A DNA stretch of 64,000 nt from contig JANPBZ010000134.1 of NCBI GenBank assembly GCA_031430695.1, forward strand, positions 8,683-72,682, given 5' to 3'. This DNA is from Ilumatobacteraceae bacterium (lineage in GTDB: Bacteria > Actinomycetota > Acidimicrobiia > Acidimicrobiales > Ilumatobacteraceae). Numbering within the stretch: the first letter of the stretch is position 1; every line of letters begins with the position of its first letter. A program made the translations under genes and the position numbers. A model generated the notes under the pieces. It was given only the letters and a program-made list of their open reading frames with translations. It ran no database searches and had not been told where the DNA came from. Shown piece by piece: positions 33,589-55,984 of the stretch.

Positions 33589-33802
33589 AATACTTCTCGC
33601 AGGGTTGAAATTGTCAAGGTCTCGGCAAGAATGCCGATGAAATCCCTGGTGAGAATGAAGATTCACGTCAGAGGGCTGGGCTCGAGACGTGTGGTTCGGT
33701 GGACGAACGCACAACTCGATCGCTGCACGGGTGCCGGCGCCAACTCGGCGCGCCCCCATTCGGACTCACTATATTCCTGTCGGCGGCCGGGCCTGTTCAC
33801 AC

Positions 33803-39800: not shown

Positions 39801-42800
39801 CCGCGTCTGTCGGCGCAAGCTGCGGTGCTGCATCGGGATCGATGCCGATCGCGACCACCGTCACCATCGCCGCCGGCGCGACTGCGACGTACAACGTGGT
39901 CGTCGCGGTCTCGTCGACTGCTACAGGCTCGTTGACCAATACCTCGACGGTGCAGGCACCGGCCGGAGTGACCGACCCCGTGTCGGCCGACAACTCGGCC
40001 ACCGACATCGACTCGCTGACCCCGACCGCCGATGTGTCGATCTCAAAGACCGATGGCCTCACCACCGTGGTGCCCGGCGCCAACGTCACCTACACCGTGG
40101 TCGCCTCCAATCCCGGTCCTTCGACCGTGACCGGTGCGACAGTCAGCGACACGATTCCCGCGGCGTTGAGCGGCGCAACCTGGACGTGCTCGGCCAGCGG
40201 CGGGTCGACATGTCCGGCCACCGGCAGCGGCGATCTCGCCGCGTCGGTCACCCTTGCTCCGGGCGGGTCGACAACGTTCACGATCTCGGCCACTGTCGTT
40301 GCCTCGGCCACCGGCACGATCTCCAACACAGCGACGATCACGTTGCCGGGCACAGTCACCGACCCGACGCCCGCCAACAACTCGGCCACTGACCTCACCA
40401 CCGTGACACCGCAGACCGACCTGACCATCACCAAGACCGACGGGACTCCGACAGCGGTGCCGGGCCAGTCGACCACCTACACGATCGTGGTCACCAACAC
40501 GGGACCATCCAGCGTCACCGGTGCGGCTGTGACCGACACGATGCCCGCAGGCGTGACGACGATGAACTGGTCGTGTGCCGGTTCGGGTGGCGGAAGCTGC
40601 CCGGCGGCGGGCAGCGGTTCGATCAGCGACAACGTCGACCTGCCGGTCGGTGCGTCGGTCACGTACACCGTCACGGTCGCAGTGGCCGCAGGCGCGACGG
40701 GAACGTTGACCAACACTGCCACCGTCGCCGCACCGCTCGGTGTCACCGATACGAACGCAGCGAACAACACCGCGACCGATGTCGACACGCTGACGCCACG
40801 TGCCGATCTGGCGGTCACCAAGACCGATGGCGTCGCCTCGGTGATCCCCGGGCAATCGACGACCTACACGGTCACAGTGACCAACGCTGGCCCATCGGAT
40901 GCCCCGAACACCGTTGTCACTGACGCCACGCCCGTCGATGCCTCGTTCACGTCGTGGAGCTGCTCGCCGAGCGCCGGCGCCGCCTGCTCGACGGCATCGG
41001 GAAGCGGGTCGATCAACACCTCCGTCGATCTGCCGCTCGGCACGATCGTCACGTTCGTCGTCGACGCCGCGATTGACGCCGCGGCCACTGGCACGCTCGG
41101 CAACACGGCGACGGCCGCCCCGGCGCCGGGCATCACCGACCCTGTTGTCGGCAACAACTCGGCCACCGATACTGACACGCTCACACCGACCGCTGACCTG
41201 GCGATCACCAAGACGAACCTTCTCAGCACGGTGGTGCCGGGCGATCCGATCAGCTACACCGTCACGGCCTCGAACTCCGGCCCGTCGTCGGTCGTCGGTG
41301 CATCGGTCGTCGATGCGTTGCCGGCCTCGTTGACGGCGGCAACGTGGACCTGCGCGGCGTCGGGTGGCGGCTCGTGCACATCGTCGGGTTCCGGTTCGAT
41401 CAACGAAACCGTGAACCTGCCGGTCGGAGCGACAGTGATCTACACGGTCGACGGAGTCGTCGCCTCGGCAGCGATCGGCAGCATCGACAACACCGCAACC
41501 GTGGGAGTGCCGGTCGGGGTGACCGATCCGGTCGTCGGCAACAACTCGGCCACCGATAGCGATCCGTTGACCCCCGAAGTCGACCTGTCGATCACCAAGA
41601 CCGACGGCCTTGCCATTGCCGACCCGCTCGATGCCGTGACCTACACGATCGTGGTGTCCAACGACGGGCCTTCGTCGGTGTCCGACGCGCAGGTCGTCGA
41701 CCTGATTCCGGCGGCTCTGCTCGGGGCGACGTGGACCTGTGCATCGGGCGTCGGGGGCAACTGCGACCTGGCCGGCCCGGTCGCCGGCGACATCAACACC
41801 ACCGTCGATCTGGCCGTCAACGGCTCCGTGCAGTTCACCGTCACCGCCACGATCGCCGGGTCGACGATCGGCACGGTCATCAACACTGCCACCGTGTCGG
41901 CTCCGTCCGGTGTGAGCGAGACCAACAGTGCCGACAACGCGGCGACCGATGCAACGGCCGTCACCTCGACCGCAGCCCTGTCGATCACCAAGACCGACGG
42001 ACAAGCCACCGATGTGGCAGGCACTTCATCGACGTACACGATCACCGTCGCCAACTCCGGTCCATCGGCAGTGATCAACGCGGCGGTGGCCGACGCGCTG
42101 CCGCCCGCATTGACCAATGCGACCTGGACGTGCACGGCCTCCGGTGCCGGCAACTGCGACGACGCCGGACCCACAGCGGGTGACATCAACTCCACCGTCG
42201 ACCTGCCGTCGGGCGAGTCGGCAACCTTCACGGTCACCGCAACCGTCGATCCGAGCTTCACCGGGTTGCTGTCGAACACGGCCACCGTCACCGCGCCGCC
42301 CGGCACGATCGACGATCCGTCGAACAACAGCAGCACCGACGACACCACAGTCGTCGCCGAAGCCAACCTGACCGTCGCCAAGTCCGACGGCACAGTCACG
42401 GCGACTCCGGGGGCCGACACCACGTACACAGTGACCGTCGACAACGCCGGGCCTTCAGCCGTGGTCGGCGCGACCGTCGGCGACGTGTTGCCCGCCGGGG
42501 CGACGGCGATGAACTGGACATGCGCCGCCAGCGTTGGGTCGTCGTGCACCGCTTCGGGAAGTGGCTCGCTCGGTGACACCGTCGATCTCCTGCCCGGCGG
42601 CCAGGTGACCTACGTCGTCATCGTCGACATCGACGCTGCGGCCACAGGCCTGCTGACCAACACCGCCACTGCAACTGTTCCCCCGACCATGACCGAGACA
42701 TCACCGCTCGACAACACCGCAACCGACATCGACAGCCTGGTTGCCGAGACAGACCTGGCGATCACCAAGACCGACAACACGCTCGCCGCGGTACCTGGCA

Positions 42801-45800
42801 CCGCGATCACCTACACCATCGTCGCCACCAACAATGGGCCGTCCGACGCCATCGGAGCCACTGTCGCCGACACGTTCCCGGGCGAGTTGAACTCGATCAG
42901 TTGGACATGCGTCGGTCCGTGCACACCCGCTGGCAGCGGAGCGCTGAACGACGTCGTCGGCCTTCCTGTCGGCGCCACCGTCACGTACACCGTCACGGCG
43001 ACCATCGCCGCATCGGCGGTTGGTGTGCTGAGCAACACCGCCACCGTGACCGCCGCGCCTGGCACCGTTGATCCGAACCCGGTCAACGATTCGGCCACCG
43101 ATGTCGACACGCTCGCCGCTGTCGCCGATCTGTCGATCACCAAGACCGATGGAGCGGCCAATGAGGTGCCCGGCACCCCGGTCAGCTACACGATCGTCGT
43201 CTCGAACAATGGTCCATCCGATGTCGTCGGTGCGTCCGTGGTCGACACGTTCCCGCTCGACCTCGCCAACGCCACATGGAGTTGTGTGGCTGCAGGGGGG
43301 ACCTGCCCGGTAGCGGGATCGGGCGACATCAACGCAGTGGTCATCCTGGCCGTCGGTGGCGCGGCGACGTTCGCGGTCACCGCTGATGTCGCCGCTTCGG
43401 CGACCGGCACGTTGACCAACACCGCAACGGTGACAGCACCTCCGGCCACCGATCCGAACGCGGGGAACAACTCGGCCACCGATGTCGACACCTTGTCGCC
43501 TGAAGTCGATCTGTCGGTCACCAAGACCGACAACGACCTGGTGGCCCAACCCGGTGACTCCGTGACCTACGAGATCGTGGTTTCCAATGCCGGACCATCC
43601 GCTGTGATCGGCGCACCGTTCACCGACATCGTGCCCTCCTCGCTCGTCGGAGTGTCGTGGACGTGCGCGGCATCGTCGGGCGCGTCGTGCCCAGCGGCGG
43701 GATCGGGCAATGCCATCAACACCACGCTCTCGCTGACACCTGGTGGGACAGCAACGTTCACCGTGACTGCCACGGTGGATGCACCGGCGACTGGCGTGAT
43801 TGCCAATACGGCGACCATCGCTGCGCCCGTTGGCGTGGTCGAGACAGCATCCGGTGACAACACCGCGACCGACACGACGTCGGTGACGCCGACGGCAGAC
43901 CTGATCATCACCAAGACGGACGGGCTGACGTCGATCGCTGCGGGCCAAGCAATCACATACACAATCGTCGTCACCAACGCTGGTCCGTCGACCATCACCG
44001 ACGCACTCGTCACCGACGTACTGCCCTCAGCGTTGGTCGGTGCCACCTGGACATGTGCCGCGTCGGCCGGGTCGAGCTGCCTCGACGCGGCAGGCTCAGG
44101 CGACATCAGCGACCTTGTCACGTTGGCATCCACCGGTACGGCGACGTTCACGGTCTCCGCGACCGTCGCCGCGTCGACGCCGGCGGGCACGCTTTCTAAC
44201 ACCGCCGATGTGGCGATGCCGGTTGGCTCGGTCGACCCGACACCGGCCAACAACACGGCCACTGACACCACGACGATCGAGCGGCACGCCGACCTCGAGG
44301 TCACCAAGACCGATGGCGTGAGCTCGGCGACGCCGGGTCTGGCGATCCAGTACACGATCGTCGTCACCAACAACGGGCCATCCAATGTGTCTGCGGCCAC
44401 GGTCGTCGACACCATGCCGGCCACGTTGATCGGCGCCACCTGGACGTGCTCGGCTTCGGTCGGCTCGACGTGCCCGGCCTCCGGATCTGGCGATTTCGCC
44501 TCGCTCGTCGACCTGCTCGCCGGTGGCACGGCAACCTTCACCGTCGATGCCACCGTGGCCGCCTCGGCGCTCGGCACGCTGGTCAACACGGCCGGCGCGA
44601 CCGTTCCGTCCGGCGTGACCGACCCGGTGCCCGGCAACAACTCGTCGACCGACACCGACACCCTCGACCCCGTTGCCGACCTGTCGATCACCAAGGACGA
44701 CTTCTCGGCCACGGCGACGCCAGGCGCGCCAGTCACCTACACGGTTGTCGTATCGAATGCCGGGCCTTCCGACGTCATCGGCGCGACGGTTGCCGACGTG
44801 CTGCCGGCGACCTTGAGCGGGGTCACCTGGAGCTGCTCGGTCAGCGGTTCCGGCTCCTGCCCGGCCTCGGGCAGTGGCGACGTCAACAGCCTCGTCTCGC
44901 TGACCGTTGGCGCCACGGCGACATTCACGATCACCGGGACTCTGTCTGCAGCAGCCACTGCCAATCTGGTCAACACGGCCACCGTCACCGCCCCCGTCGG
45001 TGTCACCGATCCGGCACCGGCCGACAACAGTGCCACCGACGTCGACACATTGGCGCGAGTCGCCGATCTGTCGGTCACCAAGACCGACTTCGCCGCCACC
45101 GCGACACCGGGTACAGCGGTGAGCTACCAGATCGTCGCCACCAACAACGGGCCATCCGACATCACCGGTGCTGTGGTGACCGACACCCCACCGGCTGAGC
45201 TCACCGGTGTCACCTGGTCGTGCACCGCCACGGGCGGGGCATCGTGCAGCAACTCCAGTGGTGTCGGGGCAATCAACGAACTCGCCGATCTGCCAGTGGG
45301 CGCCTCGGTCACCTTCACCCTCACAGCGACGCTGAGCCCTGCAGCGACTGTCCCCGTCGCCAACACCGTCCAGATCGCTGTACCTGCTGGGGCGACGGAT
45401 CCGAACCCAAGCAACAACACCGCTACCGACACCGACGCGATCGTGCCAGTGGCTGATCTGTCGATCACCAAGACGGTAGACCTGGCAGCGGCACTGCCCG
45501 ACGACGTGCTGACGTACACCATCGTCGTCGCCAATGCCGGACCGTCCGACATCAGCGATTCGCTGGTCGACGACGTCGTGCCCGCCGACGTGGTCGGGGC
45601 GACGTGGACGTGTGCGGCGCAGGCCGGCGGCAACTGCGATCTCACCGGTCCTGTCAGCGGCGACATCGCGGGCACCGTCGACCTGGTGGTCGGTGGCAGT
45701 GTGTCGTTCACGGTGACCGGCACGGTCGCGTCGACGGCGACCGGCACGATCATCAACTCGGCGACCGTCGCTGCACCGGCGGGAGCCAACGATCCGAACC

Positions 45801-48800
45801 CGGCCAACAACACGTCCTCGGCATCGACGACGATCAACCCGAAAGCCGACCTGTCGATCACCAAGACCGATGGCAATGTCACCGATGTCGCCGGTACATC
45901 GCTCCAGTACTCGATCGTTGTCACCAACAGCGGTCCTTCGACCATCCAAGACGCGCCGGTCGACGACGTGCTGCCGGCCGCGTTGCTGGCAGTGTCGTGG
46001 ACCTGCTCGCCTTCTGCTTTCTCCGTATGCGACGATCCAGCGGGTGGCGGCGACATTACTACAACCGTCGATCTGCTGGCCGGTGGAACAGCGACGTTCG
46101 TCATCGACGCCTCGATCGACCCGGCCTTTGCCGGTGTGCTCACCAACACTGCCTCGGTGACCATGCCAGGCGTCGGTGTCGACCCGACTCCTGCCAACAA
46201 CTCGGCGACCGATCTCACCACGATCGTCGCCGAGGCCGACCTGTCGATCACCAAGACCGATGGCAGCCTGGCGGCTACGCCCGGCGGCTCGACCGTCTAC
46301 ACAGTGACGGTGAGCAACTCCGGTCCGTCGACGGTCGTTGGCGCCCCGGTGTCGGACGCCATTCCCGCCGGTGCGACAGCAATGAACTGGACCTGCCTGG
46401 CGTCGCCGGGCTCGTCGTGCGCGCCTTCCGGCAGCGGAGCGCTCGCTGACACGGTCTCGTTGCTGCCGGGTGGCGCCGCCACGTACCAAGCAACGGTCGA
46501 CATCTCGAGCGCGGCGACGGGCGCCTTCGTCAACACTGCGTCGGTCGCCGCACCGATCGGGGTCACCGACCCGGCGCCCGCGAACAACTCGGCGACCGAT
46601 ATCGACACGTTGAGCCCGTCGGCCGACCTGTCGATCACCAAGACCGACGGCTTGTCGAACGCCGTGCCCGGCACGTCGTTGACTTACACGGTTGTCGCCA
46701 CGAATGCCGGACCTTCCGACGCGGTCGGCGCGACGATCAACGACAGTCTCCCGGCCTCGCTTGTCGGCTCGACCTGGACCTGTGTCGGTACTGGCGGCGG
46801 CACCTGCGCAGGAGCCGGAGTCGGGAACATCGCCGACACGGTGAATCTCCCGACGGGTGCCTCGGTCACCTACTCGGTGACGGCAATGATCGATTCCAAC
46901 GCCACCGGAACGTTGGTCAACACAGCGTCGATCGCTGCACCGATCGGCACCACCGATCCAGACCCGAGCGACAATTCGGCCACCGACACCGACACGCTGA
47001 CACCGCAATCCGACCTGTTCGTCACCAAGACCGACGGCCAAACCAATGTGGTGCCGGGTACGCCCGTCACCTACACGGTCGTCGCCGGCAACGCCGGCCC
47101 GTCGGCTGTGGCCGGTGCGACAGTGACCGACCTCCTCTCAGCCGACCTGCTCGGCGCGTCGTGGACGTGCGCGGCGGCCGGCGGAAGATGCCCGGCGACC
47201 GGTACGGGCAATATCGCGGCCAACATCGATCTTGCAGTCGGTGGCACTGCGACCTTCACGATCTCCGCCACCGTGTCGCCCTCGGCAACCTCCACGCTCG
47301 CCAATACCGTCGACGTCGCCGTTCCGAGCGGCGTCACCGATCCGATGGCCGGCAACAACACAGCGACCGACACCGACACCTTGAACCCTGAGGCCGATCT
47401 GTCGATCAGCAAGACCGACGGCCGGATCAGCGCCCAGCCCGGCGACGCGATCACCTACACCCTCGTCGCCGCCAACGCCGGCCCGTCGGCGGTCGTCGGT
47501 GCCCCGGTGATCGACGCCTTGCCCGCAGGCCTGTCCGCAGCCTCGTGGACCTGCGCACCGTCCGCAGGTGCGTCGTGTCCTGCATCGGGTAGCGGCAACA
47601 TCAACACGACGGTGTCGCTGCCGGTAGGAGCGACGGCAATCTTCACCGTCACGACGTCGATCACCGCAACGTCAGGCGTCGTTGCGAACACGGTGCAGAT
47701 CGATGCTCCGGCAGGGGTCAGCGATCCGAGCACCGGTGACAACGTGGCGACCGATACCACCTCGATCACGCCGACCGCGGATCTCTCGATCACCAAGACC
47801 GACGGCCTCACCACGGTGGCTGCCGGTGAGGTGGTCACCTATTCGATCGTTGCCACCAACGCAGGACCGTCGCCGATCATCGGTGCAACCGTCGCCGACG
47901 CGATCCCCGGAGTGCTCGTCGGCGCATCCTGGACCTGCTCTGCGACGGTCGGTTCGACGTGCGCCAACGCCACGGGCAGTGGCAGCATCAACGAGCTCGC
48001 CGACCTTGCCGCTGGCGGTCAGGTGACGTTCTCGATCACCGGGACCGTCAATGGATCGGCGGCGCCAGGGCTGCTCTCCAACACGGCGACGATCACGATG
48101 CCGTTCGGCTCGATCGATCCGACGCCGGGCAACAATTCGGCGACCGACACCACCGTCATCGAGCGACGCGCTGACCTGTCGATCTCCAAGGACGACTTCA
48201 CCGGCGCGGCAGTGGCCGGTGGTTCCACGACCTACACCGTCGTCGTCTCGAACAACGGACCTTCGAACGTGTTCGGCGCCGCAGTCAGCGACCCGATCCC
48301 GACCGGAGTGACGGCAATGACCTGGACGTGCAGTGCGACCGCGGGAGCCTCGTGCATCGTCGCCGGCACGGGCGCGCTGGCGACGAACGTCAACCTCGCG
48401 GCCGGCTCGTCGGTCACCTTCACCGTCGTCGTCGACATCGACGCAGCGGCCTCGGGCCTGCTGACCAACATCGCCTCGGTCATCCCGCCGAGCGGCGTGA
48501 CCGACCCGAACTCGGCCAACGACTCCGACACCGATGTCGACACGGTTGCCGGCGTTGCGGATCTGACCATCACCAAGGACGACGGTTCGTCGACTGCGAC
48601 CCCAGGGTCGACCACGACGTACACGATGGTCGTCACCAACAACGGGCCGTCGAACGTGACCGGTGCGACCGTGACCGATCTCCAACCGGTCGGCACCACG
48701 TTCGACTCGTGGGCCTGCACGGCGACCGGAGCGGCGAGCTGCAGCGACCCGTCGGGAACGGGCTCCATCTCGACCACGGTCGATCTGGCCGTCGGCGCCT

Positions 48801-51800
48801 CGGTGACCTTCACCGTGGTGATGGCAATCGACTCCTCGGTGACCGCTGACGTGACGAACACCGCGACGGTGGCCGCACCCAGCGGCGTCACCGATCCAAA
48901 CTCTGGCGACAACGCTGCCAGCGACACCGACACCATGCTGTTGGTCGCTGATCTGTCGATCACCAAGACTGATGGCTCGGCGACCGTGACGCCCGGCACG
49001 ACCGTCGTCTACTCGGTGACCGCATCGAACGCCGGCCCATCCGACATCGCCGGCGCGGCGGTCACCGACCTCGTGCCGGCCGCGCTCACCGGGGCGACGT
49101 GGACCTGCGCCGGAACGAGCGGAGGAGCATGCACCACCGCGACCGGATCGGCACCGATCAACCAGTCCGTCGATCTGCCGGTCGGTGGCTCGGTCACGTT
49201 CACCATCACGGGTGTGGTCGATCCGGCACTGGTCGGCGACCTCGTCAACACGGCAACGGTTGCCGCGCCGGTCGGCGTGATCGACCCGAACCCAGGCAAC
49301 AACTCGGCAACTGACCTCGACACCAACACTCCGGTCACCGACCTCGCCGTCAGCAAGACCGATGGCCTGACATCGGCACTGCCCGGCGACGTGGTGACCT
49401 ACACCGTCACGGTTTCCAGTGCCGGCCCATCCGATGCCGTCGGCGCATCGTTGATCGATGCCGTGCCGGCTGTGCTCACCGGCGTGACATGGACCTGCGC
49501 TGCGGTCAATGGCGGCTGTGTTGCCAGCGGCACGGGCTCACTGAACGAGTCGATCGACGTAGCCGTGGGTGGCACGGTGACGTTCTCGATCACCGGAACC
49601 GTCGTCGGCACAGCGACTGGAACGATCACCAACACGGCCACAGTCATGGCGCCAGCAGGCGCGAACGATCCCAACCCGGGCGACAACTCGGCCACCGATG
49701 CGACGACCGTGAATCCGAAGGCCGACCTGTCGATCACCAAGACCGATGGCAATCTCAGCGATGTTGCCGGCACCACGGTGACATACACGATTGAAGTCGC
49801 CAACGCCGGTCCGTCGATGATCACCGGCGCACCGGTGGCCGACGTCATGCCCCCGGCGCTCAGCGGAGCGACGTGGAGTTGCACGGCGACTGCCGGGTCG
49901 GTGTGCGGCGGGGTCGGTGGCGCCGGTGACATCGCCGCGACGGTCGATCTGCTCGCCGGTGGTGTGGCTACCTTCACGGTGACCGCGACGATCGACGCTG
50001 CCTTCACCGGCACGCTGACGAACACCGCGACCGTGGCCATGCCCGGCCCCGGTGTGGATCCGACGCCCGGCAACAACATCGCCGTCGACACCACCGACGT
50101 CGTGGCAGTCGCTGATCTGTCGGTGACGAAGACTGATGGTGTGGTGTCGGAGGTGCCTGGTACTGCGGTGTCGTACACGATCGTGGTGTCGAACGCCGGT
50201 CCGTCGGATGTGGTCGGTGCGTCGGTGAGTGATGTGATGCCGGTGTCGTTGTCGAATGTGTTGTGGTCGTGTGTGGGTGTGGCTGGTGGTGTGTGTTCGC
50301 CGTCGGGTACGGGTGATGTCGTTGATGTGATCGATGTGGCTTCGGGTGGCTCGGTGACGTACTCGGTGTCGGGTGATTTGGCTGCTGATGCGTCCGGGGT
50401 GTTGGTCAATGCGGTGTCGGTGGTTGCTCCTGGTTCTGTGACGGATCCGGATCTGTCGAACAACTCGGCGAGCGATGTCGACACGTTGGTGCCGACTGCT
50501 GATCTGTCGGTGACGAAGACTGATGGTGTGGTGTCGGAGGTGCCTGGTACTGCGGTGTCGTACACGATCGTGGTGTCGAACGCCGGTCCATCGGATGTGG
50601 TCGGTGCGTCGGTCACCGACGTCTTCCCGGCGACGCTCATCGGCGCCTCGTGGACCTGCGTCGCCGTGAACGGTGCCTGCCCGGCGTCCGGTAGCGGCAG
50701 CATCAGCGAATTGGTCGACCTGGCAACAGGCGGCACTGCAACGTTCACCGTCACCGCCACCTTGTCGAGTTCGGCCACAGGATCGATCACCAATACGGCC
50801 ACCGTCACGCCGCCGGCGGGCGCGACGGATCCGGATCCGACCAACAACTCTGACGCCGACACCGACACGCTCGATGCCGTTGCCGATCTGTCGATCACCA
50901 AGACCGACAACGACACGAATGCTCGCCCGGGAGACCTGATCACGTACGAGATCGTTGCCTCCAACGCCGGTCCGTCGGCGATCACTGGCGCTGTTGTCAG
51001 TGACGCGATGCCCGCGGGAGTCTTTGGCGTCAGTTGGACGTGCGCAGCCGGCAGTGGCGCCACGTGCCCGGCGTCGGGTATCGGTGATCTGAACGAAACA
51101 GTCGATCTGGCCGTCGGCGCCTCGGCGACGTTCACTGTCACGGCGACCGTCACGGCCTCCGTTGGATCGATCACCAACACCGCGCAGATCGATGCACCCG
51201 CCGGTGCCACGGATCCGAACACAGCCGACAACGTCGCCAGCGACACCACCCAGGTCGACCCGCTCGGTGATTTGTCGATCACCAAGACCGACGGTCTGAC
51301 GTCGGCCGCGCCGGGAGCAGGGATCTCCTACTCCATCGTTGTTTCCAACAGCGGTCCGTCGGCGGCCGCAGGCGTCGCTATCAGCGACACCGTGCCCCCG
51401 TCGTTGTCGGGTGTCACCTGGTCGTGCACGGCCAGCCCCGGATCCGCATGCACCAATGCGACCGGCACCGGCGACATCAGCGAACTTGTTGATCTCGCTG
51501 CCGGTGGTTCTGTTTCGTTCATGGTCGCGGCAACGATCGACGCCGATGCCACGGGTGTGCTCAGCAATACCGCGACGGTGGCTCCACCCTCCGGCTTCGC
51601 CGACTCCGACTCCGCCAACAACTCGGCCACCGATGTCACCGACCTGGATCCGGCGGTCGACCTCGCCGCGACGAAGACCGATGGGCAGGTCATCGCGATC
51701 CCCGGCACGCCGATCAGCTACATCATCGTCGTCACCAACGCCGGCCCGTCGGTGGCCGCGGGATCGCAAGTGCTCGACAGCCTGCCTGCGTCGTTGCTCG

Positions 51801-54800
51801 GAGCGACCTGGACATGTAGCGCGGCACCGGGATCCTCGTGCGGTGCGCCGTCGGGTAGCGGCTCGATCGACGAGATCGTGACCGTCGGCGTCGGCGGCAC
51901 CCTCACGTACATCGTTGCTGCTTCCGTTTCACCATCTGCCGTGGGAGTGCTCGCCAACACCGTCACCGTCATGCCCGCCCTCGGCACCGGCGACACGAAT
52001 GCCGGCAACAACTCGGCGACCGACGTCGACTCGCTGTCGCCGCAGGCCAACGTGAATGTTGTCAAGACCGACGGAGCAGCCGCGGCTGTGCCGGGCACGA
52101 CGATCACCTACTCGATCATCGTCAGCAACGCCGGCCCATCCGCTGTGTCCAATGCCGCCGTTGCCGATGTGCTGCCGGCAGAGCTCATCAATGCCACCTG
52201 GACGTGCACGGGCTCGATCGGTGGCTCGTGCGATGCGGTCTCGGGCATCGGTGGCATCGTCACGACGGCCGATCTGCAGGCCGGCTCCGCTGTGACCTAC
52301 ACCCTGACTGCCACGGTCGTCCCCGTCGCTACAGGCACCGTGGTCAATACCGCAACGGTGAGCGTGCCGGTGGGTGTCGTCGACTCCGATCTGACCGACA
52401 ACTCGTCGACCGATATCGACAACCTCACTCCTTCGGTCGACCTGTCGATCGCCAAGACAGATGGTGTCACATCGGTGGTTCCGGGGACCTCGACCACCTA
52501 CACGATCATGGTTGCAAACAGCGGGCCGTCAACGGCGGCCGGTGCTCAGATCACGGACCTGTTGCCCGCAGAGCTCATCAATGCCAGTTGGGGGTGCACC
52601 GCTTCGGGCGGCGCGACGTGCGGCACCCCCAGCGGCTCTGGCGACGTATCGCTGCTGGCCACACTGCCGGCCGGCGGATCACTGACGATCGATGTCGATG
52701 CCGATATCGACCCGACCGCCACGGGCTTCGTCGTCAACACGGCAACGGTCACAGGACCTGTCGGCGTGACCGACACGGACCCCGCCAACGATTCTGCGAC
52801 CGACAGCGATGTACTGACTCCAACGGCCGACCTGTCGATCACCAAGGACGACGGTCTGGCGACGGCATTGCCCGGCGACCCCGTGGCCTATGCCATCGTG
52901 GTCACCAACAACGGCCCGTCCGCAGTCGTCGGCGCGACCGTCACTGATGTGATGCCCGCCGGGTTGTCGGCGGTGACATGGACGTGCAGCGCTTTGCCGA
53001 GTTCGTCGTGCGCGTCCGCTGCGGGTGGCGGGGACATCGCGACCACGGTCGATCTGGCCATCGGTGAGTCGGCGACGTTCGTGATCGACGCGACGATCGC
53101 GATTAGCCAAATCGGTGTCGTGACCAACACCGCGACCGTCGACGCCCCAGTGGGGGTCACCGATCCCAACAGCGCCGACAACATCGCCATCGACACGACC
53201 ATGGTCAACGGGCTCGGCGACGTGTCGATCGTCAAATCCGATGGTGTTGCCACGATCGTTGCCGGAACCTCGACTACGTACACGATCGTGGTCACCAACC
53301 CGGGGCCGTCGCAGATCGACCGCATCCAGGTGATCGACTCGTTGCCGGCTGCATTGATCGGTGCGAGTTGGACCTGCGCGGCGACCGGTGCAGCGTCGTG
53401 TAGCGCAGCATCAGGCTTCGGTTCGATCAGCGAGATGATCGACATGCCGGCCGCGAGCACCGTCACGTTCAGCGTGACGGCCACGGTGTCACCCTCTGCC
53501 AGTGGCACGCTTTCGAATACTGCGTCGGTGACGTTGCCGACTGGCATCGTGGACTCCGACCTGACCAACAATGACTCGACTGATGTCACCGACATCGACA
53601 GGATCGCCGATCTGGCCGTGACGAAGACCAATCACGTCTCGGCGCTCACGCCTGGCAACTCGGTCGGCTACGACATCACCGTCGTCAACAACGGGCCTTC
53701 ATCGGTCAGCGGTGCCACGCTCAGCGATCTCGTTCCCGCCTCGATCACCGGTGTCACGTGGACGTGTACAGCGGGCGCCGGGGCCGCATGTGGAGCGGGC
53801 GCCGGCAGCGGCAACGTGTCGCTCAACCTCGATCTCGCGGTCGGCGCGAGTGTGGCCGTACGCATCACCGGCACGGTGTCGCCGAACGCAGCCGGAACAC
53901 TGACCAACTCCGCAACGGTCGCCCCGCCTGTCGGCGTCACCGACCCCGATGTCGCAGACAACACAGCCACAGATACCGACACGCTCGACCCGGTCGCCGA
54001 CGTGTCAGTGGCCAAGTCGAACGGCGTCACGTCGCAGTCGCCAGGTGCAACGTCGTCGTACACCATCACCGTTGCCAACGCCGGGCCTTCTGCGGCCGCC
54101 GGCGTCACCATCGACGACCCGCTGCCTTCGGGCGTGGCGACTGCCTCGTGGACATGCTCGGCAGCGGCAGGTTCGTCGTGCGCCGCTGCGTCGGGAATCG
54201 GAGCTGTCAACACCACCGTCGACCTTGCCGCGGCCGGAACTGTGACGTTGACGGTGTCGCTGCAAGCCGGCCTGTTCGCTGGCACATTGACCAACACGGT
54301 GACCGCGACCGTGGCAGCTGGAACGACCGACCCCGACCCCTCCAACAACGTCGCCAGTGACACCGACACCTTGGTGTTCACCGCCGACATCGCTGTCACC
54401 AAGGCCGTGTCTGCGGCCGTGGTTGCAGTTGGTCAGGCCCTCAACTACACGGTCGTTGTCTCCAACGCCGGCCCCGATCGGGCGGCGGGCGTCACCGTGC
54501 TCGACACCATGCCTGCCGGCCTGGCCAGCCTCACATGGACATGCGCGGCAACCCCTGGTTCCTCGTGCCCGGCGAATGGCACGGGCGACATCACCTCGAG
54601 CATCGATCTTGCCGCTGGCGGATCGGCCACCTTCACCGTGAGCGCGACGGTGACCAGTGCCGCGCCGAACACCATCGTCAACACTGCGACTGCTGCCGTC
54701 GGGCCCGACACCATCGATCCTGATCCGACGAACAACACGGCCAGTGTGACGTTCGCGGTCGACTTCACCTCGTCGCTGTCGGTGCAGAAGACAGCCACAG

Positions 54801-55984
54801 TCGCAACCGCCCTGCCCGGAGACGCCTTCTCGTACACGATCGTGGTCAGCAATGCCGGCCCAGCGCTGCTCGACGATGTCTCGATCTCCGACCCTGTGCC
54901 GGCCGGTCTCGTTGCGCTCTCGTGGACATGCCTGGGCAGCGCCGGTGGTGTCTGCAACTCGGTCATCGGCAGCGGTTCGCCAGCACTCACTGCCGACCTG
55001 CCATTGGGTGGCTCGGTCACGATCACGTTCAACGTGCAGGTAGCACCGGGTGCCACAGGCTCGATCCTCAACATCGTCACCGCGACGGCCGGCGGGGCCA
55101 GTGGCCAGGTCACCGCGCAGGCAACCGCCAGCGTGGAAGTGAGCCCGGTCGTGCCACCGACCGCGGCACTCTCGATCACCAAGGCGACATCGGTGGCGAC
55201 GTATTCGACGGTCGGCAGCGTCGTCAGCTTCACCCTTGTCGCGAGGAACACCGGCAGTGCCACATTGACCAACGTGACAATCGCCGATCCCAACGCCACG
55301 CTGACGGCGTGCGCGCCGGTCACGCTCGGCCCGGGTCAGACACTGACCTGCTCGGCGGGCCACGTCGTGACGCAGTCCGATCTCGACCGGGGCACGTTGA
55401 GCAACACGGCATCTGTGTCGGGCGTCTCGCCGACCGGCTCCACCGTTGTCGCCACCAGCGCGACCGTGGTGGTACCCGCGCTGCCGATCACGGCTCTGTC
55501 GATCGTCAAGTCGTCGTCGGCGACCGAGTTCGTCAAGATCGGCGACAAGATCTCATACACGATCACAGCCACGAACACGGGCAACGTAACCCTGATCAAC
55601 GTTGTCATGTCCGATCCCAATGCTTCGCTGATCTCCTGCGCCCCGACCAACTTGACGCCGGGGCAAGCCCTGACGTGTACGGCTGTTCACACGGTGACAG
55701 CCGCTGATGTGGCGGCCAAGGTGATCCTCAACCAGGCGTTCGCAACGGCATTGCCGGTGACCGATTTCGAAGTGGTCTGCCCGCTCCTGGGGGCCAGCGG
55801 CCTGCAGTGCCCCAACGGTCCGACGGTCTCGGCCGAGTCCAACACCGTGGTGTTGAACCGGGCTTCGCTACTGCCCAGTACTGGTGGAACGGTTGTCACC
55901 AAGCTGATCGTCGGTGGGTGGCTCTTCGGTGTCGGCGGCCTGCTGCTGCTGGTGACCGGCCGTCGCCGCCGCGCAGCGCGCTGA
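33803..55984 (+). CDS. Giant (about 7,390 aa) LPXTG-anchored cell-surface protein made of DUF11-type repeat modules
   Basis: A single open frame runs 33689-55984. ATG 33803 precedes a signal-peptide-like N-terminus (RWSGLRRSALATALVSGSVVFGTGLFVPSVAAAP). About 51 modules of about 129 aa follow. The C-terminus is LPSTG plus a hydrophobic segment plus RRRRAAR. Confidence 0.9.
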   Translation: MADDRPSSNNASRWSGLRRSALATALVSGSVVFGTGLFVPSVAAAPLCASPPLTGNTTATGVINTYYPGQTSITAGTSNTTVTVGTSRGSATPIAVGDLVMVMQMQGAEINATNTNAYGDGVTSATASGFLNNASFIAGQYEYATVRSVAGAVVGLDGSGTNGGLINNYVNASESATQGQQRFQVVRVPQYSSATLSVATPPAAVAWDGSSGGIVVLDVASDLNLNGATINVTGQGFRGGLQRSRSGTGGLANTDYRTTTAQAANGQKAEGIAGTTKWTTGSADTVGDGYPNGDFGRGAPGNAGGGGTDGDPASNSENSGGGGGGNGGAGGVGGNTWSSNLARGGHGGAVVPGTASRVFLGGGGGAGSDNNAVLSSSGGAGGGMVLVRAGSLSGTGTINADGAAGNVSGQDGSGGGGAGGSIVVLTSLTGAASGISGLTARARGGAGGNETHADQHGPGGGGGGGRVITAAATASTVVTAGANGTHVPTSSAYGATSGSAGASSATAVVGDAPGTNTGSQCIDASVTKSTNPTPVIPGQTVTYTVVATNDGPYPRTGTAPIVVTDTLPAGLTSATWTCSASAGSNCTASGSGSLSTTANLEVGDSATYTITATLASTFTGTLSNTATVAGPATIPELNATNNSATSAVLAEPRANLGITKTDGVAAEVPGTNAVYTIVASNAGPSTATNALITDSLPAGTISGSWTCAAGSGGTCGAASGTMPMSTTATLSPSGTVTYTVTVAVSSTATGSLANTVTIAAPAGTVETNSANNVATDTDNLTPTADLSISKTDGLTTIDAGTGLTYTIALSNAGPSAITGATVTDTFPASLTGATWTCAASAGSSCPASGSGSISASVNVLAAGSVTFTVTATVVSTATGTLSNTATVALPGGATDPTAANNTATDTTTITRRADVSITKTDGAATEVPGTSVTYTIVAANAGPSAAIGTSVTDTLPASLTGATWTCTATAGSTCPASGSGNISTTVDLLPSGSATFTLTATIASTATGSLANTATVAVAAGVTDPAAGNNSATDTDTLTPTADLSITKTDGVTGEVPGTAVTYTIVASNAGPSTATAATATDTLPAVLSGGTWTCSASVGSTCPASGSGNINASVTLAPGGTATFTLTATISSSATGSLANTATIAAPASVTDPTPGNNSATDVDTLTPTGDLSITKTDGVATAIPGQSVTYTIVATNAGPSVITAATVADTFPASIAGATWTCSASAGSSCPASGSGNINANVNLAVAGTATFTVTAPISPTATGSLVNTATIAAPAGSSDPSGANNSATDTDTLTPTADLSITKTDGAATEVPGTPVTYTIVASNAGPSAASGSNVADTFPAALTGATWTCSAGGGATCPASGSGNISATVDLPVGGTASFTVNGTVAAGATGSLTNTATVSVGAGITDPAPGNNAATDTDTLTPTADLLITKTDGATTEVPGTSVTYTIVASNAGPSTITAATVTDTMPASLSGVTWTCSASAGSSCPASGSGSISASVTLVSGGAATFTVTGAISATATGSLANTATVALPGGATDPTPANNSATDTDTLTPTADLSITKTDGSATEVPGTAVTYTIVASNAGPSAVTAATVADTMPAALTGVTWTCSASSGAACPASGSGDINASVDLPVGGSATFTVSATISASATGNLVNTATVAAPGGVTDPTPANNSATDADSLIPTADLSITKTDGVVTEVPGTAVAYTIVATNGGPSAVSAATIADTMPAALTGVTWTCAGASGGTCPASGSGNINVSVDLPVGASVTFTVSATISTSATGTLVNTATIAPPAGVTDPTPANNSATDTDTLNPTADLSITKTDGSATEVPGTAVTYTIVAGNSGPSAVIAATVADTIPATLNGATWTCVPAGGGSCAASSGSGNISTTVDLPVGATATFTISATVVATTTGNLVNTASITAPGGVTDPTPANNSATDTDTLNPTADLSISKTDGVASVIPGQSTTYTVVVGNAGPSTAVNAPVADALPAGATSGSWTCAASVGASCGAASGSMPIATTVTIAAGATATYNVVVAVSSTATGSLTNTSTVQAPAGVTDPVSADNSATDIDSLTPTADVSISKTDGLTTVVPGANVTYTVVASNPGPSTVTGATVSDTIPAALSGATWTCSASGGSTCPATGSGDLAASVTLAPGGSTTFTISATVVASATGTISNTATITLPGTVTDPTPANNSATDLTTVTPQTDLTITKTDGTPTAVPGQSTTYTIVVTNTGPSSVTGAAVTDTMPAGVTTMNWSCAGSGGGSCPAAGSGSISDNVDLPVGASVTYTVTVAVAAGATGTLTNTATVAAPLGVTDTNAANNTATDVDTLTPRADLAVTKTDGVASVIPGQSTTYTVTVTNAGPSDAPNTVVTDATPVDASFTSWSCSPSAGAACSTASGSGSINTSVDLPLGTIVTFVVDAAIDAAATGTLGNTATAAPAPGITDPVVGNNSATDTDTLTPTADLAITKTNLLSTVVPGDPISYTVTASNSGPSSVVGASVVDALPASLTAATWTCAASGGGSCTSSGSGSINETVNLPVGATVIYTVDGVVASAAIGSIDNTATVGVPVGVTDPVVGNNSATDSDPLTPEVDLSITKTDGLAIADPLDAVTYTIVVSNDGPSSVSDAQVVDLIPAALLGATWTCASGVGGNCDLAGPVAGDINTTVDLAVNGSVQFTVTATIAGSTIGTVINTATVSAPSGVSETNSADNAATDATAVTSTAALSITKTDGQATDVAGTSSTYTITVANSGPSAVINAAVADALPPALTNATWTCTASGAGNCDDAGPTAGDINSTVDLPSGESATFTVTATVDPSFTGLLSNTATVTAPPGTIDDPSNNSSTDDTTVVAEANLTVAKSDGTVTATPGADTTYTVTVDNAGPSAVVGATVGDVLPAGATAMNWTCAASVGSSCTASGSGSLGDTVDLLPGGQVTYVVIVDIDAAATGLLTNTATATVPPTMTETSPLDNTATDIDSLVAETDLAITKTDNTLAAVPGTAITYTIVATNNGPSDAIGATVADTFPGELNSISWTCVGPCTPAGSGALNDVVGLPVGATVTYTVTATIAASAVGVLSNTATVTAAPGTVDPNPVNDSATDVDTLAAVADLSITKTDGAANEVPGTPVSYTIVVSNNGPSDVVGASVVDTFPLDLANATWSCVAAGGTCPVAGSGDINAVVILAVGGAATFAVTADVAASATGTLTNTATVTAPPATDPNAGNNSATDVDTLSPEVDLSVTKTDNDLVAQPGDSVTYEIVVSNAGPSAVIGAPFTDIVPSSLVGVSWTCAASSGASCPAAGSGNAINTTLSLTPGGTATFTVTATVDAPATGVIANTATIAAPVGVVETASGDNTATDTTSVTPTADLIITKTDGLTSIAAGQAITYTIVVTNAGPSTITDALVTDVLPSALVGATWTCAASAGSSCLDAAGSGDISDLVTLASTGTATFTVSATVAASTPAGTLSNTADVAMPVGSVDPTPANNTATDTTTIERHADLEVTKTDGVSSATPGLAIQYTIVVTNNGPSNVSAATVVDTMPATLIGATWTCSASVGSTCPASGSGDFASLVDLLAGGTATFTVDATVAASALGTLVNTAGATVPSGVTDPVPGNNSSTDTDTLDPVADLSITKDDFSATATPGAPVTYTVVVSNAGPSDVIGATVADVLPATLSGVTWSCSVSGSGSCPASGSGDVNSLVSLTVGATATFTITGTLSAAATANLVNTATVTAPVGVTDPAPADNSATDVDTLARVADLSVTKTDFAATATPGTAVSYQIVATNNGPSDITGAVVTDTPPAELTGVTWSCTATGGASCSNSSGVGAINELADLPVGASVTFTLTATLSPAATVPVANTVQIAVPAGATDPNPSNNTATDTDAIVPVADLSITKTVDLAAALPDDVLTYTIVVANAGPSDISDSLVDDVVPADVVGATWTCAAQAGGNCDLTGPVSGDIAGTVDLVVGGSVSFTVTGTVASTATGTIINSATVAAPAGANDPNPANNTSSASTTINPKADLSITKTDGNVTDVAGTSLQYSIVVTNSGPSTIQDAPVDDVLPAALLAVSWTCSPSAFSVCDDPAGGGDITTTVDLLAGGTATFVIDASIDPAFAGVLTNTASVTMPGVGVDPTPANNSATDLTTIVAEADLSITKTDGSLAATPGGSTVYTVTVSNSGPSTVVGAPVSDAIPAGATAMNWTCLASPGSSCAPSGSGALADTVSLLPGGAATYQATVDISSAATGAFVNTASVAAPIGVTDPAPANNSATDIDTLSPSADLSITKTDGLSNAVPGTSLTYTVVATNAGPSDAVGATINDSLPASLVGSTWTCVGTGGGTCAGAGVGNIADTVNLPTGASVTYSVTAMIDSNATGTLVNTASIAAPIGTTDPDPSDNSATDTDTLTPQSDLFVTKTDGQTNVVPGTPVTYTVVAGNAGPSAVAGATVTDLLSADLLGASWTCAAAGGRCPATGTGNIAANIDLAVGGTATFTISATVSPSATSTLANTVDVAVPSGVTDPMAGNNTATDTDTLNPEADLSISKTDGRISAQPGDAITYTLVAANAGPSAVVGAPVIDALPAGLSAASWTCAPSAGASCPASGSGNINTTVSLPVGATAIFTVTTSITATSGVVANTVQIDAPAGVSDPSTGDNVATDTTSITPTADLSITKTDGLTTVAAGEVVTYSIVATNAGPSPIIGATVADAIPGVLVGASWTCSATVGSTCANATGSGSINELADLAAGGQVTFSITGTVNGSAAPGLLSNTATITMPFGSIDPTPGNNSATDTTVIERRADLSISKDDFTGAAVAGGSTTYTVVVSNNGPSNVFGAAVSDPIPTGVTAMTWTCSATAGASCIVAGTGALATNVNLAAGSSVTFTVVVDIDAAASGLLTNIASVIPPSGVTDPNSANDSDTDVDTVAGVADLTITKDDGSSTATPGSTTTYTMVVTNNGPSNVTGATVTDLQPVGTTFDSWACTATGAASCSDPSGTGSISTTVDLAVGASVTFTVVMAIDSSVTADVTNTATVAAPSGVTDPNSGDNAASDTDTMLLVADLSITKTDGSATVTPGTTVVYSVTASNAGPSDIAGAAVTDLVPAALTGATWTCAGTSGGACTTATGSAPINQSVDLPVGGSVTFTITGVVDPALVGDLVNTATVAAPVGVIDPNPGNNSATDLDTNTPVTDLAVSKTDGLTSALPGDVVTYTVTVSSAGPSDAVGASLIDAVPAVLTGVTWTCAAVNGGCVASGTGSLNESIDVAVGGTVTFSITGTVVGTATGTITNTATVMAPAGANDPNPGDNSATDATTVNPKADLSITKTDGNLSDVAGTTVTYTIEVANAGPSMITGAPVADVMPPALSGATWSCTATAGSVCGGVGGAGDIAATVDLLAGGVATFTVTATIDAAFTGTLTNTATVAMPGPGVDPTPGNNIAVDTTDVVAVADLSVTKTDGVVSEVPGTAVSYTIVVSNAGPSDVVGASVSDVMPVSLSNVLWSCVGVAGGVCSPSGTGDVVDVIDVASGGSVTYSVSGDLAADASGVLVNAVSVVAPGSVTDPDLSNNSASDVDTLVPTADLSVTKTDGVVSEVPGTAVSYTIVVSNAGPSDVVGASVTDVFPATLIGASWTCVAVNGACPASGSGSISELVDLATGGTATFTVTATLSSSATGSITNTATVTPPAGATDPDPTNNSDADTDTLDAVADLSITKTDNDTNARPGDLITYEIVASNAGPSAITGAVVSDAMPAGVFGVSWTCAAGSGATCPASGIGDLNETVDLAVGASATFTVTATVTASVGSITNTAQIDAPAGATDPNTADNVASDTTQVDPLGDLSITKTDGLTSAAPGAGISYSIVVSNSGPSAAAGVAISDTVPPSLSGVTWSCTASPGSACTNATGTGDISELVDLAAGGSVSFMVAATIDADATGVLSNTATVAPPSGFADSDSANNSATDVTDLDPAVDLAATKTDGQVIAIPGTPISYIIVVTNAGPSVAAGSQVLDSLPASLLGATWTCSAAPGSSCGAPSGSGSIDEIVTVGVGGTLTYIVAASVSPSAVGVLANTVTVMPALGTGDTNAGNNSATDVDSLSPQANVNVVKTDGAAAAVPGTTITYSIIVSNAGPSAVSNAAVADVLPAELINATWTCTGSIGGSCDAVSGIGGIVTTADLQAGSAVTYTLTATVVPVATGTVVNTATVSVPVGVVDSDLTDNSSTDIDNLTPSVDLSIAKTDGVTSVVPGTSTTYTIMVANSGPSTAAGAQITDLLPAELINASWGCTASGGATCGTPSGSGDVSLLATLPAGGSLTIDVDADIDPTATGFVVNTATVTGPVGVTDTDPANDSATDSDVLTPTADLSITKDDGLATALPGDPVAYAIVVTNNGPSAVVGATVTDVMPAGLSAVTWTCSALPSSSCASAAGGGDIATTVDLAIGESATFVIDATIAISQIGVVTNTATVDAPVGVTDPNSADNIAIDTTMVNGLGDVSIVKSDGVATIVAGTSTTYTIVVTNPGPSQIDRIQVIDSLPAALIGASWTCAATGAASCSAASGFGSISEMIDMPAASTVTFSVTATVSPSASGTLSNTASVTLPTGIVDSDLTNNDSTDVTDIDRIADLAVTKTNHVSALTPGNSVGYDITVVNNGPSSVSGATLSDLVPASITGVTWTCTAGAGAACGAGAGSGNVSLNLDLAVGASVAVRITGTVSPNAAGTLTNSATVAPPVGVTDPDVADNTATDTDTLDPVADVSVAKSNGVTSQSPGATSSYTITVANAGPSAAAGVTIDDPLPSGVATASWTCSAAAGSSCAAASGIGAVNTTVDLAAAGTVTLTVSLQAGLFAGTLTNTVTATVAAGTTDPDPSNNVASDTDTLVFTADIAVTKAVSAAVVAVGQALNYTVVVSNAGPDRAAGVTVLDTMPAGLASLTWTCAATPGSSCPANGTGDITSSIDLAAGGSATFTVSATVTSAAPNTIVNTATAAVGPDTIDPDPTNNTASVTFAVDFTSSLSVQKTATVATALPGDAFSYTIVVSNAGPALLDDVSISDPVPAGLVALSWTCLGSAGGVCNSVIGSGSPALTADLPLGGSVTITFNVQVAPGATGSILNIVTATAGGASGQVTAQATASVEVSPVVPPTAALSITKATSVATYSTVGSVVSFTLVARNTGSATLTNVTIADPNATLTACAPVTLGPGQTLTCSAGHVVTQSDLDRGTLSNTASVSGVSPTGSTVVATSATVVVPALPITALSIVKSSSATEFVKIGDKISYTITATNTGNVTLINVVMSDPNASLISCAPTNLTPGQALTCTAVHTVTAADVAAKVILNQAFATALPVTDFEVVCPLLGASGLQCPNGPTVSAESNTVVLNRASLLPSTGGTVVTKLIVGGWLFGVGGLLLLVTGRRRRAAR
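35360..55150 (+). repeat. Coding tandem-repeat array, unit about 387 nt (129 aa), about 51 copies by hand count
   Basis: Recurrent ADLSITKTDG..EVPGT.VTYTIVASNAGPS...W(T/S)C...C...TNTATV..P.G.TDP...NNSATD.D.L.P. The anchor tcgatc(a/t)c(c/g)aagaccga recurs at 36161, 36548, 36935, 37322, 37709, 38096 (with ctgatc in place of tcgatc), 38483, 38870 and 39257. Confidence 0.9.
55871..55984 (+). other. Sortase cell-wall sorting signal (LPSTG, hydrophobic span, basic tail)
   Basis: LPSTGGTVVTKLIVGGWLFGVGGLLLLVTGRRRRAAR followed by the stop. Confidence 0.85.

Follow-up and report, generated by a model that had tools for sequence, protein, structure and literature searches.

The DNA analysed here, hereafter the window, is a 64-kb stretch (G000:C134:8683-72682) of the metagenome-assembled genome (MAG) of an Ilumatobacteraceae bacterium (G000; 4.15 Mb in 270 contigs, 91% complete). 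It carries a giant gene for a surface protein, an adhesin with tandem modules, in which the coding strand of module 39 is rich in G and T and depleted of C and A. The host is a soil actinobacterium, and the related contigs are titled as Ilumatobacteraceae MAGs. From our point of view, and with about an even chance of being right, the G/T-rich tract is a concertedly evolving mini-array on which a strand-specific bias against C acts that is linked to recombination or to replication. As such, it would represent a small and long-lived tandem array in which unequal crossing-over and gene conversion keep one 387-nt unit almost the same as the adjoining one, and of which the 116-nt direct repeat that bounds the tract would be the trailing partial unit. 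The coding strand would have been recoded in place from C (and A) to G and T, within the array only and up to the limits set by the protein and by the codon preference of the host, with a strand-specific bias tied to recombination or to replication slippage between near-identical units as the likeliest driver.

The base composition of the tract (A.113, C.193, G.410, T.284) differs from that of the genome (.177/.323/.323/.177), and between 50100 and 50399 the GC skew amounts to +0.43 to +0.47 and the AT skew to -0.50 to -0.62, compared with about -0.1 and 0 in the rest of the gene. At third codon positions, module 39 contains no A (A3 0.00) and little C (C3 0.12, more exactly 0.124; z=-8.7), with G3 at 0.54 and T3 at 0.33, whereas the other modules show C3 values of 0.40-0.58 and T3 values of 0.05-0.18; its third-position G/T fraction (K3) is 0.876 versus 0.432 +/- 0.045 in the other modules (z=+9.9). 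An earlier note on this DNA had described a C-poor patch with a codon style of its own on the basis of hand counts. These counts are exact (6 C in 50221-50280, 24 C in 49981-50040), and the patch is recovered by skew and third-position scans along the gene. Since the first positions (keto skew +0.55; at most +0.30 in others) and the second positions (-0.09; at most -0.05 in others) of module 39 are shifted too, the force acts on the nucleotides, beyond codon choice.

Among 162,803 windows of 300 nt across the genome, the tract has the highest value of (G+T-A-C), namely 0.48 (sd 0.074). Similar C-poor tracts throughout the genes of the genome, which according to the earlier note would have spoken against a special status of the patch, were not found, as across 2072 ORF-level genes (open reading frames, ORFs) K3 does not exceed 0.62 and C3 does not fall below 0.28. 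The remaining skewed tracts of the genome correspond either to Thr/Pro-rich linkers that are encoded on the other strand or to insertion-sequence-like pieces at contig ends. A G+T-skewed stretch on the + strand of the window itself (3844-4343, i.e. C134:12526-13025; 0.35) encodes a Thr/Pro/Ala-rich linker of a - strand protein and is unrelated to the tract. A period-3 NNK scan of the genome proved too noisy, with first codon positions being G-rich throughout.

The layout of the tract follows the tandem modules of the protein (Table 1). Both of its edges are abrupt at codon resolution, with C3-rich codons giving way to codons without C3 within one or two codons in the third-position strings. 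The 116-nt direct repeat with a single differing base and a spacing of 387 nt is as the earlier note had it (115/116 identical, with the identity ending at both sides), and the pair holds the only exact repeat of at least 40 nt (92 nt) in the window, in agreement with the claim that no other near-perfect long repeat is present. The loss of one module from the third super-repeat copy is likewise confirmed: modules 37 and 38 pair with modules 27 and 28, and module 41 pairs with module 32, so that this copy has 2 modules where copies 1 and 2 have 3. The relatives, too, carry three modules at the position of the tract where G000 has two. Head-to-tail copies at exactly one repeat period, with a copy number that varies among relatives, are what tandem duplication or unequal crossover is expected to leave, and the tract shows both, its spacing of 387 nt being that of one module.

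Table 1. Position of the G/T-rich tract and of its parts within the giant gene (numbering of the window)
Feature	Position	Strand	Description or basis
Giant surface-protein gene (adhesin)	33689..55984	+	About 22 kb, 7431 aa; ORF and translation
G/T-rich, C-/A-depleted tract	50111..50613	+	503 nt, equal to 1.3 copies of the 387-nt unit; composition
Direct repeat copy 1 (module 39 head)	50111..50226	+	Begins 6 nt upstream of the module boundary
Direct repeat copy 2 (module 40 head)	50498..50613	+	Ordinary C3-rich coding again from 50614
Module 39	50117..50503	+	DUF11 domain; positional orthologue of the relatives' module 39
Module 40	50504..50887	+	First 110 nt copied from module 39; remainder of normal composition and orthologous to the relatives' module 41
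Single mismatch between the repeat copies	50203 (G) vs 50590 (A)	+	Alignment of the copies
GCTGGTGG, the E. coli Chi octamer	50282..50289	+	Inside the tract; not conserved in the alignment with G009

The recoding of module 39 is found with the same codon-sharp left edge in three species, namely G000, G009 and G021. In G009, two 381-nt units without a single mismatch are followed by an 83-nt head (2.2 units), and the repeat begins 6 nt before the module boundary, just as it does in G000; in G021 (C3 0.25) the module head is repeated as well, and the contig stops there. With two identical units plus 83 nt in G009 and one unit plus 116 nt in G000, the recent unequal crossover that had been suggested in the earlier note is supported as the source of the 116-nt repeat and of the missing module. 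The synonymous sites that flank the tract are close to saturation among the three species (excess codon identity 0.14-0.20). That the recoded state is nevertheless shared means that it is maintained, since an old one-off event would have decayed. Within module 39, the third-position identity is 0.79 between G000 and G009 (flanks 0.58 +/- 0.04; +5 SD, standard deviations) and 0.70 between G000 and G021 (flanks 0.54 +/- 0.05; +3.4 SD), while the identity at first and second positions between species is the same as in the flanks. Near-deterministic codon choice predicts most of the excess in third-position identity (expected 0.67, observed 0.80).

In the rest of the gene, G000, G009 and G021 do not form one group, and G011, which is nearest to G009, is without the recoded tract because its module 39 looks, from the alignment, as if it had been overwritten by the module-40 type. 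A recent lateral exchange among G000, G009 and G021 was considered and rejected, as the shared derived states are all C/A -> G/T and none lies outside the bias; this test is suggestive only. In G335, the nearest of the relatives found (identity of about 90%), the recoded head is 97% identical, compared with 85-95% for other heads, which is within range and is not used as evidence. Its contig (G335:C561:1-3001, corresponding to window 45458-50208) leads from a module-27-like module (0.877) to a module-38-like one (0.871) and on to the recoded head, and on this alignment it seems to lack modules 28-37, that is, one whole ten-module super-repeat unit. The giant genes of G009 (G009:C11, in a 20-contig MAG) and G011 (G011:C12, in a 10-contig MAG) are split into several frames, and modules 39-41 of G011 show single-base indels; these splits and indels may stem from errors of assembly or sequencing, in which case the genes would not be true pseudogenes.

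An import from a differently biased donor, which the earlier note had also considered, finds no support. In every relative, the tract matches best to the module in the corresponding position (G009 86%, G021 79-80%, G002/G019 72-75%, G406 72%), and the modules 39 of G002, G019 and G406, although of normal composition, have private motifs in common with that of G000 (MPxxLSNVxWSC, SPSGTGD and DPDLSNNSA). The codons of the tract are the host's best ones among those not ending in C or A, in other words its second choices (GTG 80%, TCG 82%, GGT 86%, GAT 92%), and ATC, TAC and AAC, the T-ending partners of which are strongly avoided in the gene, are kept. Within the G000 genome, a blastn search with the tract returned only itself and ordinary paralogous modules (78% over 183 nt, 67% over 516 nt). 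Screening 41 close relatives and a further 401 genomes of the family (about 440 in total) with the tract revealed no donor, the phage and plasmid collections gave no match to it, and an exact-pattern scan of metagenome contigs gave 0 matches. The 19 distant loci from a protein-seeded metagenome scan include none that are G/T-rich, and in 80 DUF11 loci from other phyla no comparable patch was seen apart from that of G009. With neither a nearer relative off position nor a foreign codon style, horizontal import of module 39 is not supported by these comparisons.

The direction of the recoding can be read from the 67 changes that separate module 39 of G000 from the G002/G019 consensus. Among these, C>T (33) and C>G (14) dominate, followed by A>T (7), G>T, A>G and G>A (3 each) and G>C, T>C and C>A (1 each). 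Expressed per base, 55/123 C sites (45%) and 16/54 A sites (30%) are changed, compared with 11/137 G sites (8%) and 5/62 T sites (8%). The loss of C is graded by codon position, with 35/49 (71%) at third, 15/61 (25%) at second and 5/13 (38%) at first positions, and because of this filter a single mutational burst cannot account for the recoding. A preference for CpA of the kind seen in repeat-induced point mutation (RIP) was not detected (CpA 7/15 vs CpG 30/62 changed), nor was an APOBEC/AID-type context, with changed C in 7/27 cases after T, 21/34 after G, 15/27 after C and 10/31 after A. The suggestion of a locally hypermutated tract thus holds as far as the direction of the changes is concerned, but not as a one-off burst, given the codon-position filter and a state that is maintained across species.

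The encoded domain has been retained throughout. Module 39 passes the Pfam model DUF11 (PF01345) with 56.2 bits (cut-off 24.6, E=5e-15), close to the 63.1 bits of the neighbouring module 38, and its 150 bits on an in-house module hidden Markov model (HMM) lie inside the range of the other modules. In the giant protein as a whole, a non-repeat head is followed by 51 tandem DUF11-type modules (about 129 aa each), two DUF7507-type modules and the C-terminus, as delineated with the module HMM and Pfam. The C-terminus shows a candidate signal for sortase anchoring, consisting of an LPSTGG motif, then a hydrophobic stretch and then an RRRR tail (LPSTGG...LLLLVTGRRRRAAR as read in the translation); an NCBIfam search of the giant protein left the anchor models unmatched and returned the DUF11 repeat only. 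The head (window 33800-35371) resembles the N-terminal domain of AgmC, an adventurous gliding motility protein, in NCBIfam model NF047640 (E=5.5e-43, 147.5 bits), and this score is under the curated cut-off of 275.

Module 39 is not the only place where such recoding has occurred. In G002 (G002:C47), a recoded cassette extends from +101 to +1321 nt of module 8, i.e. over 1220 nt or 3.15 units of 94.6% identity, with C3 at 0.17-0.18 in modules 9-10. In its sister G019 (G019:C503, modules at 1572-2735), in which the units are less alike, the recoding covers module 10 (C3 0.16) and parts of modules 9 and 11, and within module 11 it ends at roughly the codon where it ends in G002. A third cassette is present in a genome of another family, G028 (G028:C68:139909-140621), in which modules 27-28, at a contig end, show C3 values of 0.07-0.10 and T3 values of 0.31-0.41 with the same codon set. 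Within the G002/G019 cassette there are 12-16 C>G and 12 C>T changes and 0 G>C changes, compared with 9-18 C>G and 9-15 G>C changes in the control modules 6 and 14, and the third-position identity of module 10 between the two genomes is 0.876 against 0.726 +/- 0.053 in the flanks (+2.8 SD). As judged from these sequences, the recoding has at least three separate origins among related genes for giant surface proteins. In G000, G009, G002 and G028, windows that share 95% or more of their bases with the adjacent unit show a keto skew of +0.19 to +0.38, whereas it is -0.03 to -0.07 elsewhere; this coincidence holds in 4/6 cassette-bearing genomes.

In the gene of G000, the highest neighbour identity (68-80%) is found in a 5' sub-array of modules 3-11 (window 36158-39643). 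After module 39, the highest third-position G/T content of this gene is that of modules 10-11 (keto skew +0.09 and +0.12), and the same region is fully recoded in G002 and G019.

As to how such a bias might arise, the orientation of the gene is of interest. The giant gene lies about 115-150 kb from dnaA in two relatives in which both are on the same contig, namely G406 (dnaA at 627 kb on the - strand, giant gene at 741-762 kb on the + strand) and G011 (dnaA at 381 kb on the + strand, giant gene at 204-236 kb on the - strand). The origin of replication, oriC, usually adjoins dnaA, and under this assumption the gene would be co-oriented with replication in both genomes, which would make its coding strand the lagging-strand template as well as the non-transcribed strand. 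These are settings that favour the loss of C from single-stranded DNA. With regard to mismatch repair, a NucS/EndoMS gene is present at G000:C113:10867-11226 (128 bits), and a MutS domain was not found in this 91%-complete genome; NucS in the absence of MutS is the usual non-canonical mismatch repair of actinobacteria. EndoMS/NucS cuts only G/T, G/G and T/T mismatches (PMC6159521), and in mouse cells the resolution of mismatches after single-strand annealing of tandem repeats is strand-biased (PMC9001825). Two causes can be imagined for the postulated bias, namely that (i) added single-strand exposure in the course of slippage or recombination would lead to the removal of C by deamination or by the bypass of abasic sites; or (ii) a strand-biased resolution of heteroduplexes would fix G/T variants.

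For the mini-array under a strand-specific bias, we regard as established the array structure, the in-place orthology, the direction of change together with its codon filter, the conservation across species, the recurrence and the coincidence with G/T richness in four genomes; the causal tie to recombination or replication and the molecular mechanism are what we infer from them. Several observations weigh against this explanation. The recoded modules of G019 are without any lag window of at least 95% identity, so that the coincidence with near-identical units is unsupported there, and modules 9-10 of G406 (95% identical, skew -2/-6) and modules 39-41 of G011 (88-92%, +5 to -2) are only mildly raised. 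As near-identical neighbours in these two genomes are not strongly G/T-rich, homogenisation alone would be insufficient. The direction of replication presumes an oriC beside dnaA and was read in relatives, the dnaA of G000 being on another contig, and an estimate from codon skew on C134 itself gave mixed signs and is contaminated by shadow ORFs. Codon-sharp edges are what a recombination junction would yield, and they fit a biased array only because the biased tract equals the array. Since C>G is frequent in the control modules too, the deaminase-like combination of C>T and C>G would in part be ordinary synonymous exchange. The higher third-position identity inside the cassettes than in the flanks would also fit selection on a nucleic-acid element. 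Finally, the bias may be one of mutation or one of fixation.

Such selection on the nucleic acid itself is the main rival, and we give it a minor but real chance. The G/T tract would then be kept either because a C-rich, G-poor and unstructured antisense RNA loads Rho and thereby halts antisense transcription, or because a TGG-like pairing sequence preferred by RecA promotes changes in module number. The antisense RNA of module 39 is indeed C-rich and uniquely unstructured, like a Rho loading site, folding at -18 kcal per 100 nt, whereas each of the 50 remaining modules lies between -42 and -55 kcal per 100 nt (the two units of G009 fold at -21 and modules 9-10 of G002 at -35); a Rho loading site, however, needs about 80 nt, whereas the recoded tracts comprise 500-1200 nt. 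The trinucleotides TGG, GGT and GTG make up 21.6% of module 39, a 3.7-fold enrichment over the other modules (mean 5.9%, maximum 9.5%), and TGG repeats are preferred by RecA (PMC3763553). The left edge is conserved across three species, and the third-position identity is raised in all of the cassettes in which it was compared (+5, +3.4 and +2.8 SD), but the latter is mostly given by the near-deterministic codon choice. Rfam has no match at E<=1 in 49500-51200, and no promoter- or terminator-like sites are present in 48500-52500. It would also be odd for a positional signal to sit at different modules in each lineage (module 39, modules 8-11, and modules 27-28 in G028), and a transcription signal would not predict that the recoded tract matches near-identical units in four genomes.

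The mildest form of import, an allele that entered by homologous recombination from an unsampled relative with a G/T-coded gene region, appears unlikely to us. It would be in line with the codon-sharp edges, with the patchy distribution (the three carriers being ungrouped in the rest of the gene and G011 without the tract) and with a module 39 identity between G000 and G009 of 0.86 as compared to 0.76 in the flanks. The excess identity is, however, confined to third positions, neutral shared markers are absent among the shared derived states, the codons are the host's own second choices, and the absence from G011 is explained by the overwriting of its module 39. Three cassettes at three modules, each orthologous in place, would moreover require three separate imports, and no relative with a gene that is G/T-coded as a whole was seen among about 10 orthologues read or the 41 + 401 genomes screened. 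Still much less probable is a single burst of damage on single-stranded DNA, as in the strand-coordinated clusters of tumours, that was duplicated afterwards. Strand-coordinated C>T and C>G changes with few changes at G, as well as the abrupt edges, are what such a burst would produce; yet it could not have spared C at second positions (25% changed, against 71% at third positions), it cannot choose the host's preferred synonymous codon each time, and neither the TpC nor the CpA context is present, quite apart from the persistence of the state across species with near-saturated synonymous sites. An assembly artefact, i.e. a chimeric join or a collapsed repeat in the MAG, is the least probable of all and hardly credible to us. 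The G000 assembly is fragmented into its 270 contigs, the repeat is a point of contig breakage in G021, G019 and G335 as well, and a layout of one unit plus a partial unit is what the shortest way through a tandem-repeat loop would give, so that the true copy number may be higher. Independent MAGs, however, carry the recoded module in frame and in the corresponding position (86% identical in G009, where it lies on a 521-kb contig, and 79% in G021). This rules out that the tract as such is an artefact and leaves only its copy number in question; the two 116-nt copies also differ by one base.

Viewed next to known systems, a biased array would share features with several of them. Strand asymmetry associated with replication and transcription enriches the leading or non-transcribed strand in G and T, as cytosines are deaminated where DNA is single-stranded, and genome-wide skews of this kind amount to a few percent. 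The tract resembles this in direction (more G than C and more T than A on the coding strand) and in the co-orientation presumed for two relatives, but differs in reaching a K3 of 0.88 (z=9.9) over 503 nt and in that its codon-sharp edges coincide with those of a tandem array. Concerted evolution with biased gene conversion, for example of the GC-biased type, would likewise confine a shift to homogenised sequence, keep it over speciation and reduce the reverse changes (0 G>C in the G002/G019 cassette vs 9-15 in controls); in contrast to the GC-biased type, which favours GC on both strands, the bias of the tract is towards keto bases on one strand. RIP, known from filamentous fungi, hits both strands with a net enrichment of AT, prefers CpA and inactivates genes. 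Like RIP, the process considered here targets duplicated DNA, removes C and has limits that match the duplicated segment; unlike RIP, it has barely changed the G of the tract (8%), lacks the CpA preference and has retained the reading frame and the signature of the DUF11 fold. A RIP-like process in prokaryotes was not found in the literature, nor did a full-text search, covering open-access papers only, yield a bacterial counterpart of repeat-linked strand-specific recoding or bias. With APOBEC-type kataegis, the tract has in common that one strand is affected and that C>T and C>G dominate (C>A 1/67), and it differs from it by the absence of the TpC context (7/27, vs 21/34 after G), by its evolutionary time scale and by the filter of selection.

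The tract can also be compared with recombination hot spots. It is 3.7-fold enriched in TGG/GGT/GTG, similar to the GT/TGG sequences that RecA prefers, it contains GCTGGTGG, and it is a site of copy-number change. The octamer, however, shows no conservation in G009 and probably results from the base composition, we know of no Chi sequence for this group, and the composition may be a cause of recombination as well as a consequence of it. A pair of roughly 116-nt repeats within a gene for a surface protein, differing where one copy has A, may further recall a diversity-generating retroelement. In the present case there is one difference only, both copies are the heads of consecutive modules and the changes are centred on C and not on A; a reverse transcriptase (RVT_1) was not matched in the 91%-complete G000 genome, and the tract does not qualify as such an element.

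Overall, most work on strand asymmetry and on biased gene conversion deals with them as weak forces that act across whole genomes, and here a force of the same direction lies about 10 SD beyond the norm over a few hundred bases. As a practical caution, such patches look like horizontally acquired DNA in composition scans and break short-read assemblies. One could go further and propose, tentatively and with less confidence than the reading of the tract itself, that this group of bacteria has a repeat-linked, strand-specific process that strips C (and A) from the coding strand of near-identical tandem duplicates. Such a process might be to prokaryotes what biased gene conversion or RIP is elsewhere, and it might be tied to the mismatch range of NucS or to the GT preference of RecA. 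If the link to recombination or slippage holds, the patches would provide a natural read-out of the sites of module exchange in giant repeat genes, as well as a handle on how NucS repair, in the absence of MutS/MutL, and single-strand damage shape the sequences of Actinomycetota. If true, the proposed process would recode repeats while the protein is kept, and would thereby mark recombination hot spots in giant adhesin genes.

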